DNA of 56,598 nucleotides from an uncultured Candidatus Saccharibacteria bacterium (GCA_964603485.1 CAZRVE010000001.1:42342-98939), one strand, 5' to 3'. Shown: positions 7,862 to 27,337, numbered from the stretch's first letter. Notes: a model not told the origin generated them from the letters alone. Translations and numbers: made by a program.

Positions 7862-8713
7862 ATGGCGTACTCGATTCGCGAGCTTACCCATGCCGAATTT
7901 CCTGCCCTCCTTAAAGAAATCCCCGATCCTCCAGAAACTCTCTTCTGTGCCGGAACCCTTCCCTCAGAGGGGAGGTTACTTCTTGCGGTGGTCGGCGCCC
8001 GACAATATACCCAATATGGAAAAGAAGTATGCGAGAAGATTATCTCTGGCTTAAGTGGGCACCCCATTACTATTGTCTCTGGTCTTGCTCTTGGGATTGA
8101 TTCCATCGCTCACAAGACCGCACTTGAGTGTGGACTACCTACAATTGCAATACCCGGCTCGGGACTCGGGAAGGATGTGCTCTACCCAAGAACCCATCGA
8201 GAGCTTGCAGAAAGAATAGTTTCTTCAGATGGTGCGCTTATCTCAGAATTTGAAAATACTTTTAGGGCAACCCCCTGGAGCTTCCCTCGTCGAAACAGGA
8301 TCATGGCGGGCATGAGCCACGCGACTTTAGTAATTGAGGCTGAACAAAAATCTGGAACGCTCATCACCTCGAAGCTCGCCACAGAATACAATCGCGATGT
8401 CTTTACCGTACCCGGATCGATCTTTTCTCGTACATCAGAAGGTCCTCATATGCTTATACGTCTTGGAGCAATTCCAGTAACAAAAAGTGGGGATATTCTT
8501 GAGATATTTAACCTTGAAGAAAAAACTTCTCCAATGCATAGCGACCTCACAGAAGAAGAAAGATTTGTGGTAGAGCTCCTTACAAGTCCGATGACTCGTG
8601 ATGAACTGGTAAGAAAGAGCAAGCTTGAAACCTGGAAAATAAATTCAATTCTAAGTGCTATGGAAATCAAAGGATTAATTATTGAATCAATGGGGCAGAT
8701 ACGATTAACGTAA
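7862..8713 (+). CDS. dprA: DNA processing protein DprA/Smf
   Basis: 283 aa. Rossmann-like DprA core (VVGARQYTQYG...IVSGLALGIDSIAH). Confidence 0.85.
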   Translation: MAYSIRELTHAEFPALLKEIPDPPETLFCAGTLPSEGRLLLAVVGARQYTQYGKEVCEKIISGLSGHPITIVSGLALGIDSIAHKTALECGLPTIAIPGSGLGKDVLYPRTHRELAERIVSSDGALISEFENTFRATPWSFPRRNRIMAGMSHATLVIEAEQKSGTLITSKLATEYNRDVFTVPGSIFSRTSEGPHMLIRLGAIPVTKSGDILEIFNLEEKTSPMHSDLTEEERFVVELLTSPMTRDELVRKSKLETWKINSILSAMEIKGLIIESMGQIRLT

Positions 8714-13107: not shown

Positions 13108-14148
13108 CTAAGGGTTAATAGAAACAAGTTCCAAGGTCGAAACGCATCTAAAATCCTCATCGTATTGGCAGTCTCTTTCTATAAAATTAGCCACCGTGAT
13201 GGTTGTTGGTGGTAAGTTATCGAGGTCACTTGGAAGCTCGGCCATGAGGACTTGAACTTCTGGCTGATCTGTATTTCTAAAATAAAGACACGAAAAATCG
13301 GAAGAGCGTTCTCCTTCAACTTTAATATTGTGGATGAGATTTGAACTAATTATAGGTAGTTTCTTCATCGTTTCCTCCCATGGAACAACGAAACACTCGG
13401 CCCCGCCAGCAGGGGAAGGCGATCGTCTTCCGCCACTAAGAGTCGTAGTGCCTGTCCACGCGACATTCCTAAAGCTCGGGAAAAAAGCATCAAATTCTCC
13501 AGAAACAAAAGTAAATCCTTTTTCTTGAAAACCTGGTTTGTGTGGGGCAGGAAGAAGATGTCTAGTAAATGTTATGGGCCCACTCCTACTTAAGACAGTC
13601 TCTGGATTGGTTCCATTCTCCTCTGAATAATCTCCTTCTCCTGTTTTTACTAATACAATACGATATTGCGCCGTTTCATCGCCAAAAAAGTCTGTAGTGT
13701 TAAGGCTGTGAATAGGTTTATCATAAAGTTGATAAGGCTGAACTTTAAGAATGAAGCTTCCTTCGTCGTCATCATAGAAATCTGAGAAATCTTCGCTAAG
13801 AAGCCGTGCCCTGTTCCAAAAATTGGTTTGCTTTGAAGAGACAGCCGAAAGCATTACCGCTTGCGCAAGATCATCATTTTTTACAATTCTAAAGCTATAG
13901 TAACTTCTTCTCATAACATCAACATCTTTAAAATCTTTCAAGACAAAGGTACCCGCAGGAACTCTGACAGTAACAGAAAACTCTTTTGTAAGATCAACAG
14001 TATCACTGTTATCAATGGATATTTTTATATTTTCCAATCCTATCTGATTAGGAGGATGATTAGATGACATAAAAAACCGATCAGCTAACATTAGAATTAC
14101 CAAAATAGATCCTGCTACTATCAGAATTTTTTTCTGGTTTACATTCAT
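13108..14148 (-). CDS. Hypothetical membrane-anchored extracytoplasmic protein (346 aa)
   Basis: N-terminal TM helix then large soluble domain. 4-nt overlap with parB start. Confidence 0.5.
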   Translation of the reverse strand: MNVNQKKILIVAGSILVILMLADRFFMSSNHPPNQIGLENIKISIDNSDTVDLTKEFSVTVRVPAGTFVLKDFKDVDVMRRSYYSFRIVKNDDLAQAVMLSAVSSKQTNFWNRARLLSEDFSDFYDDDEGSFILKVQPYQLYDKPIHSLNTTDFFGDETAQYRIVLVKTGEGDYSEENGTNPETVLSRSGPITFTRHLLPAPHKPGFQEKGFTFVSGEFDAFFPSFRNVAWTGTTTLSGGRRSPSPAGGAECFVVPWEETMKKLPIISSNLIHNIKVEGERSSDFSCLYFRNTDQPEVQVLMAELPSDLDNLPPTTITVANFIERDCQYDEDFRCVSTLELVSINP

Positions 14149-15140
14149 ATACTAAAATTCTTCACTGAGTAAATATCGTCCTCCTTTTCTTCTTTTGCGA
14201 TTTCAAGGGGGGCACGATCATCAGTAAGAGTCGTTGCTTCCTCAGGGGCCACAGGGATTTGCTCTGCATGAGTCTCGGCATATGCATGAAGTGAAGCGTT
14301 CGGATCCTTTACTATGTTAGTTTGAATAACCCCAAGGAGCGCCTTAAGGTCTTCGTTTGAGAAGAAATCAATCATCACCTTCCCCCCCACATCTTTCCTT
14401 TCGATTTGCACACGAGTACCAAGAGCTTCGCGCAATTTTTCTTCTAGATCAACAATTTCTGGATCGAATGCAAGTTCCTTCTTACGAACCTTGTCATATG
14501 CGATACGGCGAGCAATAGCTTCCGCCTCACGGACAGTAAGCTTCTTTAAAAGAATTTCTTTATACAAAACTGATTGCTCTTCTGGCCTGTCATTTAACAT
14601 CATCAGAGGCCTTGTATGCCCTTCAGAAATTTTTCCCTGAGAAAGTGCCTCAAGGATATCAGGAGGAAGCGAGAGAAGACGGAGAGTATTTGAAACATAC
14701 TCTCGGCTCTTTCCCACTTTTTGAGCAATCACATGGTGTTTAAAACCAAATTGATTTGCGAGACGCTCAAAGGCTCTAGCCCGATCAACCGGATTCAAAT
14801 CCTCACGTTGAATGTTTTCAATAATCGCAAGCTCGAGCTTCATTAAATCCGTATCATCTCCCGTCTTAATAAGACAAGGCACTTGCTGAAGACCCGCACG
14901 TTTGGAAGCGCGGAGACGACGTTCTCCGGCAATAAGTTCGTACTTTACGCCGATTCCACCATCAGGCTTTTCGTATTCTTTTCTGGTAACTACGAGAGCT
15001 TGGAGTACTCCGTATTGGCGTATGGAATCAGAAAGACTCTGGAGTTCAGGTTCACTAAACTCTCTGCGGGGCTGAAATGGATTTGGCTCAATTTTGTCAG
15101 TATCAATCCAGAAAATAGAGTCGTTATAAAACTGTGACAT
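14145..15140 (-). CDS. parB: Chromosome partitioning protein ParB/Spo0J
   Basis: ParB box IAGERRLRAS, HTH, GHTRPL motif. No parA adjacent. Confidence 0.85.
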   Translation of the reverse strand: MSQFYNDSIFWIDTDKIEPNPFQPRREFSEPELQSLSDSIRQYGVLQALVVTRKEYEKPDGGIGVKYELIAGERRLRASKRAGLQQVPCLIKTGDDTDLMKLELAIIENIQREDLNPVDRARAFERLANQFGFKHHVIAQKVGKSREYVSNTLRLLSLPPDILEALSQGKISEGHTRPLMMLNDRPEEQSVLYKEILLKKLTVREAEAIARRIAYDKVRKKELAFDPEIVDLEEKLREALGTRVQIERKDVGGKVMIDFFSNEDLKALLGVIQTNIVKDPNASLHAYAETHAEQIPVAPEEATTLTDDRAPLEIAKEEKEDDIYSVKNFSI

Positions 15141-15217
15141 GAGTGTATTTTAGCATAGACTTTTATATTCTAGGATTGAGAAGCATTTGATTTTGTAGTA
15201 CCTTGAAAAGCGTTCTT

Positions 15218-15259
15218 GCCGGGGTGGCGTAACCTGCCTGCCGGCAGGCAGGTGGTAGC
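15218..15259 (+). pseudogene. Duplicated 5' fragment of tRNA-Leu(CAA) (acceptor + D-arm) interrupted by a 20-bp perfect palindrome
   Basis: gccggggtggcgtaa[cctgcctgccggcaggcagg]tggtagc matches the first 25 nt of the intact tRNA at 15513. Upstream cttgcc also shared. Confidence 0.7.
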
Positions 15260-15275
15260 TCTCAAAAAAGGCTAT

Positions 15276-15527
15276 ATGATATACCACGTATATGCGATAA
15301 AAAGCCTGCATCGGAATATTATTTATGTAGGCATGAGTAATAATGTACCGAGAAGGTTGGCCGAACATAATCTGGGCAGGAACAGGTCTACAAAAGCATA
15401 TAAGCCGTTTTTCTTATTTTATTCCGAAAAATTTTTAAATAGACGAGAAGCAAGGATTCGTGAAAAATATTTAAAATCTGGAATTGGTAAAGAAAAATTG
15501 AAAAAGATACTTGCCGGGGTGGCGTAA
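15276..15527 (+). CDS. GIY-YIG nuclease-superfamily protein (YhbQ/UPF0213-like)
   Basis: GIY-like HVYAI and YIG-like IYVGMS motifs, RRLAEHN. 3' end overlaps the first bases of tRNA-Leu(CAA). Confidence 0.7.
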   Translation: MIYHVYAIKSLHRNIIYVGMSNNVPRRLAEHNLGRNRSTKAYKPFFLFYSEKFLNRREARIREKYLKSGIGKEKLKKILAGVA

Positions 15528-15593
15528 TGGTAGCCGCGCTCGACTCAAAATCGAGTCCCGTAAGGGGTGGAAGTTCGAGTCTTCTCCCCGGCA
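15513..15593 (+). tRNA. tRNA-Leu (anticodon CAA), long variable arm
   Basis: Hand-folded: acceptor gccgggg/ccccggc, anticodon loop ctCAAaa, T-loop TTCGAGT. Confidence 0.8.
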
Positions 15594-15624
15594 CAATTTT
15601 TTACTCAAAATAGAAGTAATCCAA

Positions 15625-15662
15625 CCGTAATTATCCGCGCCGATCGGCACAGATAATTACGG
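15625..15662. repeat. Imperfect copy of palindrome family 2 (GATC centre)
   Basis: ccgtaattatccgcgcc-gatc-ggcacagataattacgg. Confidence 0.7.
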
Positions 15663-15783
15663 TTGTTAACGTCAGGCTGTGGATTCTTTCGACTTTAGTA
15701 AATTATCCTACCTACTTGATTTTTTATCAAAGTATGATATAATACATATTAGAGCTGTATCACTCAAAACAGGAGGAACCCTT

Positions 15784-17663: not shown

Positions 17664-17745
17664 TTAACGCGTAATGTCCCGCATCCAATGCGGGACATTT
17701 TCTTTGAAAGAAGCATCAAATTTGATAGGATGAGCGAGTTCCTGA

Positions 17746-17817
17746 GGGCCTATAGTTTCAATGGTAAAACATCGGTCTCCAAAACCGAGGTTCGAGGTTC
17801 GAGTCCTCGTGGGCCCG
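17746..17817 (+). tRNA. tRNA-Trp (anticodon CCA)
   Basis: Hand-folded: acceptor gggccta/tgggccc, anticodon loop ctCCAaa, T-loop TTCGAGT, discriminator G. Confidence 0.8.
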
Positions 17818-17830
17818 CAAGTAGTTTTAA

Positions 17831-26523: not shown

Positions 26524-26608
26524 GCCCGGGTGGTGAAATGGTATACACGGAGGACTTAAAATCCTTTGCCCGTTAAAAGGCGTGTGAGTTCGAGTCTCAC
26601 CCCGGGCA
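26524..26608 (+). tRNA. tRNA-Leu (anticodon TAA), long variable arm
   Basis: Acceptor gcccggg/cccgggc, anticodon loop acTTAAaat, T-loop TTCGAGT. Confidence 0.8.
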
Positions 26609-26710
26609 CTTGGTTTTACGTTTTCAATTGTTAATATGCATCCGTAACTGTTTTGGTAGGTATACAGATCGCGTGGTAGAAATAAGGCGTAGTAGGTAAA
26701 ATTAAAATAT

Positions 26711-27141: not shown

Positions 27142-27222
27142 GCTGGGGTGGTGAAATGGCAGACACGCTTGCCTTAGGAGCAAGTGCCGTAAGGCGTGGA
27201 GGTTCAAGTCCTCTCCCCAGCA
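27142..27222 (+). tRNA. tRNA-Leu (anticodon TAG)
   Basis: Acceptor gctgggg/ccccagc, anticodon loop ccTTAGga, variable arm, T-loop TTCAAGT. TTGAAT-N16-TATATA promoter upstream. Confidence 0.8.
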
Positions 27223-27337
27223 CACGTAGTGTGCTTGAGCAAAACAATTGATTGTTTTGCGTGAGAGGACTTGAAAACCTTGAGTATCTCGGCTTGCCGG
27301 GACGAAAGGTGTACCGCTCCCGTAGGGAGAAAGATTC

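Follow-up and report, generated by a model that had tools for sequence, protein, structure and literature searches.

Single-domain GIY-YIG nucleases that act next to hairpin repeats are known as Ssn, proteins of about 94 amino acids that bind and cut only single-stranded DNA (ssDNA) beside the repeats termed NTS/SRM (Chenal et al. 2025, PMC11893778). The ssnA genes have such repeats on both sides, in a layout resembling an insertion sequence (IS), NTS-ssnA-NTS, and further copies are dispersed in the genomes. In Neisseria, Ssn modulates transformation; the paper makes no mention of tRNA (0 occurrences), Bacteroidetes or the candidate phyla radiation (CPR) (PMC11893778). A GIY-YIG homing enzyme acting in a tRNA gene cluster is T4 SegB (PMC2330249). 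Here we analyse a stretch of 56,598 nucleotides (nt) from an uncultured Candidatus Saccharibacteria bacterium (GCA_964603485.1, CAZRVE010000001.1:42342-98939; the whole stretch is called the window), in which a gene for an 83-amino-acid GIY-YIG nuclease is situated in the 5' leader of a tRNA-Leu(CAA) gene, with an orphan 5' half of the tRNA upstream and a complete tRNA downstream. The orphan half is interrupted by a perfect 20-nt palindrome, CCTGCCTGCCGGCAGGCAGG, hereafter PAL. We consider it rather likely that the two form a tiny selfish element, made up of a minimal GIY-YIG nuclease gene and its cognate hairpin PAL, similar to Ssn/SRM and residing in a tRNA leader.

Short dispersed palindromes which insert cleanly, nested or in tandem, are otherwise known from the REP/RAYT and IS200/IS605 hairpin systems and from tiny palindromic repeats such as the Rickettsia palindromic elements and the small dispersed repeats of cyanobacteria. 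Such units are sometimes found in frame in protein genes, and go together with a single enzyme gene that has the repeat on its flanks.

The element is an insertion relative to close relatives

The window contains the first 15 nt of the intact tRNA (GCCGGGGTGGCGTAA) in exactly two places, 15218 and 15513, against 0.04 matches expected by chance. The repeat continues for 15 nt upstream of the tRNA, so that 15203-15232 and 15498-15527 are 87% identical over 30 nt at a spacing of 295 nt. PAL is unique in the window even when up to three mismatches are allowed (0 expected by chance), and as ssDNA it is predicted to form a hairpin of 9 base pairs (-12.6 kcal/mol). The sequence-only reading of this DNA had described a repeat of the first 25 nt of the tRNA, split by a palindrome; the repeat and its perfect 20-nt interruption stand, while the duplicated tRNA stretch amounts to 22 nt (15 + 7), with PAL between the two parts. 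The TCTCAAAA that follows at 15260-15267 is probably what remains of the anticodon loop CTCAAAA following the loss of about 9 nt, and the orphan copy as a whole, aligned to the local tRNA, spans positions -14 to 38 with 91% identity. The open reading frame (ORF) of the nuclease fills the space between the orphan copy and the intact tRNA. Its coding part (15276-15524) is followed by a TAA at 15525-15527, which coincides with tRNA positions 13-15, and the last five codons and the stop all fall in tRNA positions 1-15, in agreement with the earlier placement of the ORF between the two copies with a stop codon overlapping the tRNA 5' end.

In order to establish the state of the locus in relatives, the gene for ParB was used as an anchor. 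Two independent Logan assemblies from other samples (L204 and L205, ParB 100% identical) show the identical arrangement, and because they hold the identical sequence the arrangement is not an assembly artefact. The tRNA-Leu site is empty in L201/L202 (ParB 89%), in L203 (GCA_964450705.1, ParB 85%) and in L206-L208 (ParB 80%). At these empty sites about 90 nt separate the start of ParB from a tRNA-Leu(CAA) that is in essence the same as that of the window, and neither PAL nor ORF is present. The native flank of the empty sites is the one which in the window precedes the upstream, interrupted copy. The orphan copy therefore holds the original position of the tRNA, and what is extra is therefore a block of 295 nt consisting of PAL, the ORF and a second tRNA 5' end (Table 1). 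The element is thus an insertion relative to close relatives, which bears out the proposal of the sequence-only reading that a small nuclease-encoding element inserted at, and duplicated, the tRNA 5' region; the comparison with related genomes that it suggested as a check yields empty alleles with the same tRNA and flank in L201/L202, L203 and L206-L208.

Table 1. Features of the tRNA-Leu(CAA) locus in the window.
Feature	Position	Strand	Remarks
Native upstream flank of the tRNA, ahead of the orphan copy	15203..15217	+	Flank gattttgtagtacc... common to the empty sites L203, L201 and L206
Partial repeat of the native flank 15203-15217	15498-15512	+	30-nt repeat, 87% identical
Orphan (pseudo) tRNA-Leu, positions 1-15	15218..15232	+	Exact copy of 15513-15527
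PAL, perfect 20-nt palindrome CCTGCCTGCCGGCAGGCAGG	15233..15252	+	Clean insertion between tRNA positions 15 and 16 (D-loop)
Rest of the orphan tRNA: TGGTAGC (positions 16-22), then TCTCAAAA	15253..15267	+	
Gene for the 83-amino-acid single-domain GIY-YIG nuclease	15276..15527	+	Pfam GIY-YIG match, AlphaFold2 fold, invariant catalytic residues
Intact tRNA-Leu(CAA)	15513..15594	+	ARAGORN and Rfam, 55.1 bits
295-nt block extra relative to empty sites	15233..15527 (equivalently 15218-15512)	+	Comparison with L201, L203 and L206-L208

A further allele is found in L200 (Logan SRR28154525, ParB 97%), in which the entire spacer between the ParB and NUDIX genes (L200 2000-2900) has given way to another tRNA-Leu(CAA) sequence, with a LAGLIDADG-like ORF of 226 amino acids (weak LAGLIDADG_3 match) immediately behind it. 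This is a putative second, unrelated endonuclease cassette at the same tRNA locus in a near-identical strain. The window, empty and L200 alleles together therefore amount to at least three states of the locus among close relatives. As a separate observation, L206 and L208 carry an orphan tRNA 3' fragment (GTCGAGTCTTCTCC(T/C)CGGCAC) about 170 nt downstream of the intact tRNA-Leu(CAA), absent in L207, and this looks like the footprint of a different insertion, on the 3' side of the same tRNA and polymorphic among contigs with identical ParB.

The encoded protein matches the Pfam family GIY-YIG (PF01541) at E=7.9e-15 (55.4 bits against a cut-off of 22.6), the domain occupying residues 3-69. Y6, Y17, G19, R27, H31 and E63, among them the catalytic residues, are invariant in an alignment of 30 homologues, in which 23 columns are invariant across phyla. 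The structure predicted by AlphaFold2 from the 30-sequence alignment has a mean predicted local distance difference test (pLDDT) score of 95.4, with the beta-beta-alpha-beta-alpha core in the expected order, and corresponds to a bare GIY-YIG catalytic core with no extra DNA-binding domain. Foldseek gives UPF0213 as the top match, and also Slx1 (template modelling score, TM, 0.69) and the catalytic or N-terminal domains of I-TevI and UvrC. Among solved structures, two UPF0213 proteins, BH0048 and EF2693, come nearest, though the UPF0213 matches are weak (E=0.003 with the single sequence, 3.8e-7 and 8.4e-6 with a profile, about 28% identity). No match above the cut-off was obtained for the 83-amino-acid protein in NCBIfam, and the PADLOC and PHROGs searches for defence or phage families gave insignificant matches only.

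As for the surroundings, ParB is encoded upstream on the minus strand (14145-15140), and a NUDIX gene and miaA are located downstream. Rfam, run at a permissive threshold over 15100-15720, reports nothing besides the tRNA. The other tRNA-Leu genes of the window, TAA and TAG (26524-26609 and 27142-27223), have similar D-loops (GGTGGTGAAATGG...) without an insert. A second palindromic repeat of 34 nt, GTAATTATC(T/C)G(T/C)GCCGATCGGCACAGATAATTAC, is present in two copies in the window (15622-15665 and 2827-2860). The former, 33 nt downstream of tRNA-Leu, is part of an inverted repeat with 22-nt arms, and the latter is a perfect palindrome; this repeat may be a terminator or another mini-repeat.

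Recurrence across phyla and co-variation of nuclease, palindrome and tRNA

Relatives of the nuclease are encoded on 569 genome stretches (contigs, one genome per species), and the counts given below refer to 80 loci, namely the window and the 79 best of these stretches. In addition, 465 word-indexed homologues of the protein are 63-73% identical to it. The hosts of the 79 best loci are Chitinophagaceae and other Bacteroidota, Ignavibacteriota, Omnitrophota, Planctomycetales and several CPR phyla (Paceibacterota, Kaiser-, Sacchari-, Peregrini- and Peribacteria), and two host bins are labelled Gammaproteobacteria. A tRNA-Leu gene on the same strand abuts the ORF in 75 of the 80 loci, the other five including loci that end close to the ORF, and all leucine anticodons are represented (GAG 25, CAA 24, TAA 13, CAG 8 and TAG 2). 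This tRNA is located downstream of the ORF in 59 loci, mostly with a gap of -11 to +33 nt, and upstream in 16. The opposite side of the ORF usually holds a partial duplicate of that genome's own tRNA-Leu, carrying PAL. In the 5'-type loci the orphan copy covers about -6 to 39 with a median identity of 94% to the local tRNA, and in the 3'-type loci it extends from about 24 to past the 3' end with 96.5% identity. The sequence-only reading had called the arrangement unusual for this type of gene, but in this clade it is the rule.

With up to four mismatches allowed, PAL is found between -260 and +330 nt of the ORF in 69 of the 80 loci. Of 71 copies scored, 41 interrupt the tRNA cleanly by 20 nt between positions 14/15 and 15/16, the remainder being placed at the other D-loop boundary, at the anticodon-loop boundaries, in the variable region or in the T-loop. 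Two or nested PALs are present in the orphan copies of L004, L020, L052, L059 and L076, tandem arrays of orphan copy, PAL and ORF closed by one intact tRNA in L003, L005, L006 and L025, and stubs that lack the ORF are also seen among related loci. The same architecture is present in isolate genomes (Niabella, Algoriphagus and Terrimonas) and in hundreds of metagenome-assembled genomes (MAGs), and members of the genus Algoriphagus, like those of the Ignavibacteria, have the same site filled.

When 1.84 billion representatives were searched with a profile, this recovered 13,595 clusters at 50% identity with E<=1e-3, and 2,937 with E<=1e-10. Many of the top representatives carry N-terminal extensions which are the translated tRNA 5' half plus PAL, read in different frames (AELVD..., PEWRN-LPAGRQ, GIGR-PACRQAG); a crude pattern picks out at least 29 of 150. 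Many database proteins of this family (representatives P0245-P0387) have spurious N- or C-terminal extensions of this kind (AELVDALDSKSS..., AKLVDAL, LPAGRQ, PACRQAG), derived from tRNA plus palindrome. To judge from their sequences, such extensions are an annotation artefact caused by these elements.

A second clade of the nuclease is associated with another tRNA. L203, empty at tRNA-Leu, encodes on the minus strand (1020-1460) a GIY-YIG protein 33% identical to that of the window, ahead of tRNA-Trp(CCA) and arranged as at tRNA-Leu. The native position is taken by an orphan 5' half of tRNA-Trp, whose anticodon loop is broken by the palindrome CCCTGTCGCTCGCGAGCGACGGGG; the ORF, with its stop inside the tRNA, and the intact tRNA-Trp come next. 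The tRNA-Trp of the window (17746-17818; region compared 17690-17818) is empty. The polymorphism is consequently reciprocal, the window being filled at Leu and empty at Trp, and L203 empty at Leu and filled at Trp. This 33%-identical clade is found at tRNA-Trp(CCA) in all eight loci read (L203 and seven more among L209-L217), each with a second palindrome of 24-26 nt (CCCCGTCGCTCGCGAGCGACGGGG) whose variants retain dyad symmetry through paired changes (CCACG...CGTGG, CCCTG...CAGGG, GTCATTCGCGAATGAC). Taken as a 26-nt unit (A...T), this palindrome shows a seeming 2-nt target duplication (CC or TT), unlike PAL. Homologues of 31-55% identity that bear PAL, obtained from the metagenome scan described below, show the same layout at tRNA-Asn, Ser(GGA), Arg(TCG) and Lys; as these were ascertained through PAL, they are uninformative on which palindrome their clades usually carry. 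Nuclease clade, palindrome sequence and tRNA identity thus co-vary in the sequences compared. The palindrome is no incidental break in the copy; it is a conserved, clade-specific companion of the nuclease gene, and a dispersed repeat besides.

Movement between tRNA genes and dispersal of the palindrome

In a neighbour-joining tree, weak in detail as it is built on 80 residues, the CPR sequences are scattered among those of Bacteroidota and Ignavibacteriota, and sisters in the tree often differ in anticodon or orientation type. Between L017 (Leu-CAA) and L028 (Leu-CAG) the identity is about 97% over PAL, the ORF and approximately the first 28 nt of the tRNA, while the outer flanks agree with the tRNA of each locus, as does the base at tRNA position 13 on either side. 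These comparisons of sequence show an element that switches between tRNA-Leu isoacceptor genes and between phyla. No vector was identified in the phage, plasmid and IMG/VR searches: tblastn found no homologues in 50,697 phage or 72,556 plasmid records, and 35 IMG/VR stretches carry PAL, one of them (L249) with a complete unit of orphan tRNA, PAL and GIY-YIG gene. In Algoriphagus the repeats are perfect over 72 nt (100% identical), even though the insert is shared across the genus and is older than the species; these repeats have therefore been homogenised (concerted evolution, gene conversion). The duplication of the local tRNA is compatible with staggered cuts at insertion and with later gene conversion.

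PAL is also found on its own. An exact-match scan of metagenomes returned at least 120 stretches with PAL, and 118 of the 127 copies in the listed stretches have no GIY-YIG homologue within 700 nt on the contig. Such solo copies have unrelated flanks and no target duplication, and T is depleted at position -1 (11% against 28% expected). The PAL-seeded loci contain 145 copies (up to three mismatches) in 680 kb. In two cases PAL is in frame inside an essential protein-coding gene, in miaA (L026, 4534-4553) and in uvrB (L064, 1508-1527), where it leaves the reading frame open and is read as (N)LPAGRQ, the MiaA of L026 having a net gain of seven residues over that of the window at the PAL point. 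Taken together, the copies examined show that PAL has dispersed independently as a 20-nt repeat. When PAL was deleted in silico, the metagenome loci yielded no additional tRNA call.

Solo PALs are often located inside tandem arrays of a 7-nt repeat (CGTAAAT, AAAGCTC, GGTGAGA), as in L082, L084, L120, L122, L125, L218, L241 and others. PAL embedded in heptamers recalls the small dispersed repeats of cyanobacteria, tiny palindromic repeats which Elhai is said to have described in 2008. PAL is likewise found in the variable loop of tRNA-Met(CAT) on two IMG/VR contigs (L242, 2239-2330, and L219, about 8590-8660). ARAGORN still calls a 92-nt tRNA in L242, with PAL as if it were a long extra arm, and this tRNA-Met might still be functional.

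Interpretation and comparison with known systems

The selfish two-part element favoured here could operate as follows. The gene would probably be transcribed from the tRNA promoter as a piece of the pre-tRNA leader and set free by RNase P during tRNA maturation; with the gene in that leader, it could therefore not be silenced without silencing an essential tRNA. The protein, by analogy with Ssn, would bind the PAL hairpin in ssDNA and nick beside it. Nicks in the orphan fragment, which is homologous to every tRNA-Leu gene, would set off repair or recombination by which further tRNA-Leu genes receive a copy of the gene, and the same nick-induced repair may yield the tandem arrays, the 5' and 3' variants and the repeated PAL insertions of other genomes, while selection would keep one tRNA copy intact. 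Probably the same enzyme also spreads solo PAL copies elsewhere in genomes. A wider claim, to be taken as possible but somewhat doubtful, is that of a two-component mobile system which uses tRNA genes as landing pads across phyla, each clade recognising its own hairpin in ssDNA, homing to one tRNA species (Leu, Trp, Arg, Ser, Asn or Lys), duplicating part of the tRNA so that its function is kept, and spraying solo palindromes, also in frame, into genes of essential proteins.

Several points weigh against the favoured interpretation. A hydrolytic nuclease cannot join DNA, and so would not by itself account for the insertion of PAL or of the gene. Hairpin binding and ssDNA specificity would be properties carried over from Ssn by analogy. 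PAL and the tRNA-Trp palindrome are unrelated to the published SRM/NTS consensus, ATTCCC-N8-GGGAAT with its asymmetric flanks, and the hosts here are Bacteroidota and CPR, the likeness to Ssn coming from size and layout and not from an assignment to the Ssn family of CDD (cd10448). The close identity between orphan copy and local tRNA was considered as evidence of target-site duplication by staggered cuts, and was dropped as the Algoriphagus repeats are homogenised. The case for joint transcription with the tRNA comes from a weak consensus promoter scan, with no promoter-like site from the ORF to the tRNA, a weak match upstream and no convincing promoter of the gene's own. Solo PALs show no preference for hairpin loops when 113 sites are compared with 2,260 control positions (mean minimum free energy -4.07 against -3.81 kcal/mol, p=0.24; enclosed by pairs in 74% against 71%). 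Finally, there is one PAL in the 56.6-kb window, so that PAL is no high-copy repeat in this genome.

The nearest alternative is a classical free-standing homing endonuclease, which would cut the duplex D-loop of an uninterrupted tRNA-Leu, be copied by double-strand break repair and be protected by PAL blocking the cut site. The strict specificity for tRNA-Leu over all five anticodons, which have the D-arm in common, fits with this, as does the single exact D-loop site that PAL takes in most loci; close relatives include both filled and empty alleles, and the tandem arrays of L003, L005, L006 and L025 would fit repeated homing into a regenerated tRNA. T4 SegB offers a precedent in a tRNA cluster (PMC2330249), and the LAGLIDADG cassette of L200 suggests that the tRNA is a homing target for other endonucleases too. 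However, the protein has only 83 amino acids and no separate DNA-binding domain, which the known GIY-YIG homing enzymes (I-TevI and the Seg proteins) need. The intact target regenerated beside the gene would face continual cutting, which argues against simple immunity, and no insert is present in the other two tRNA-Leu genes of the window, whose D-loops are nearly the same. A passive plug at the cut site would also leave unexplained the PAL copies elsewhere in the tRNA, those repeated within one orphan copy and those outside tRNA sequence. The palindrome co-varies with the nuclease clade. The Ssn enzymes, the only small single-domain GIY-YIG nucleases so far characterised, cut ssDNA beside a hairpin repeat of their own (PMC11893778). 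A homing enzyme that cuts the uninterrupted tRNA-Leu duplex thus appears less likely from the sequences, and we regard this explanation as rather unlikely.

More improbable still is a host-domesticated, immobile Ssn-like nuclease, whose repeats would have a cellular role in recombination or transformation and whose gene would be parked by tRNAs for expression. Its strong conservation, with 23 invariant columns across phyla, and the filled site throughout Algoriphagus and Ignavibacteria agree with such a role, for which the effect of Ssn on transformation in Neisseria provides a model (PMC11893778). On the other hand, presence/absence and replacement polymorphism among very close relatives, a scattered phylogeny with anticodon switching and the single PAL in the window speak against domestication, and leftover pieces of orphan tRNA, arrays and stubs without the ORF are what selfish DNA typically shows. 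The direct repeats of tRNA sequence flanking the insert might also recall the att-like ends of an integrase-type island, tRNA genes being classical integration sites, with the GIY-YIG gene as leftover cargo. Neither the window locus nor the 79 related loci contain an integrase, though; the repeat-bounded segment holds the 83-amino-acid ORF only, the whole insert measures 295 nt, it is the tRNA's 5' portion that is duplicated, and the same minimal unit of gene and palindrome recurs in 75 loci. The comparative data effectively refute the island remnant, which is very improbable. The small size of the repeats might finally suggest chance similarity or an assembly artefact, a notion that is hardly credible and was rejected on account of the near-zero chance expectation for both repeats (0.04 and 0), the identical sequence in independent assemblies, and the recurrence of the architecture in isolate genomes and hundreds of MAGs.

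The wider claim, if true, would name an enzyme behind a class of 'very small mobile palindromes' whose means of spread had no explanation. The favoured reading, a nuclease gene with its cognate hairpin, would tie the 13,595 clusters of unannotated 'GIY-YIG nuclease family proteins' to a defined genomic life-style. It would make the spread of tiny palindromic repeats testable, including the in-frame copies in MiaA and UvrB, would show tRNA genes as cross-phylum insertion sites for elements of less than 300 base pairs, and would enlarge the Ssn-type ssDNA toolbox by nuclease/hairpin pairs of new specificity. The elements also create orphan tRNA fragments and extended ORFs (LPAGRQ and AELVDA peptides) that pollute protein databases.

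Among the papers searched, none contains the 20-mer CCTGCCTGCCGGCAGGCAGG or the LPAGRQ peptide, and the only relevant one found was that on Ssn. The class of tRNA-nested GIY-YIG/palindrome elements is large and cross-phylum, and appears to be undescribed. Among solved structures the best matches in sequence and fold are the UPF0213/YhbQ proteins (PDB 1ywl and 1zg2), which are similar in size but only about 28% identical; to our knowledge no tRNA or palindrome context has been reported for them. With SegB and I-TevI the element shares the GIY-YIG catalytic core, presence/absence polymorphism near conserved genes and the association with tRNA. These enzymes, however, have DNA-binding domains, cut the duplex of the empty allele and involve neither a palindrome nor target duplication, whereas here a bare catalytic domain is combined with an intact, regenerated target. 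The REP/RAYT and IS200/IS605 systems and the tiny palindromic repeats depend on HUH/Y1 transposases (or unknown enzymes) able to rejoin DNA, in contrast to the hydrolytic GIY-YIG nuclease found here, with a 20-nt unit and the enzyme gene inside a tRNA locus. Ssn is matched in the small single-domain protein (80-95 amino acids, here 83), in a gene with a flanking hairpin repeat of which further copies are scattered through genomes (PAL near 69 of the 80 ORFs and in 118 solo copies), and in a repeat sequence which co-varies with the nuclease clade in an IS-like layout of gene plus repeat. It differs in that the gene is here nested in a tRNA gene, with partial tRNA duplication and a tRNA identity specific to the clade. 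The most plausible functional relatives of the element are the Ssn nucleases rather than the classical homing endonucleases.

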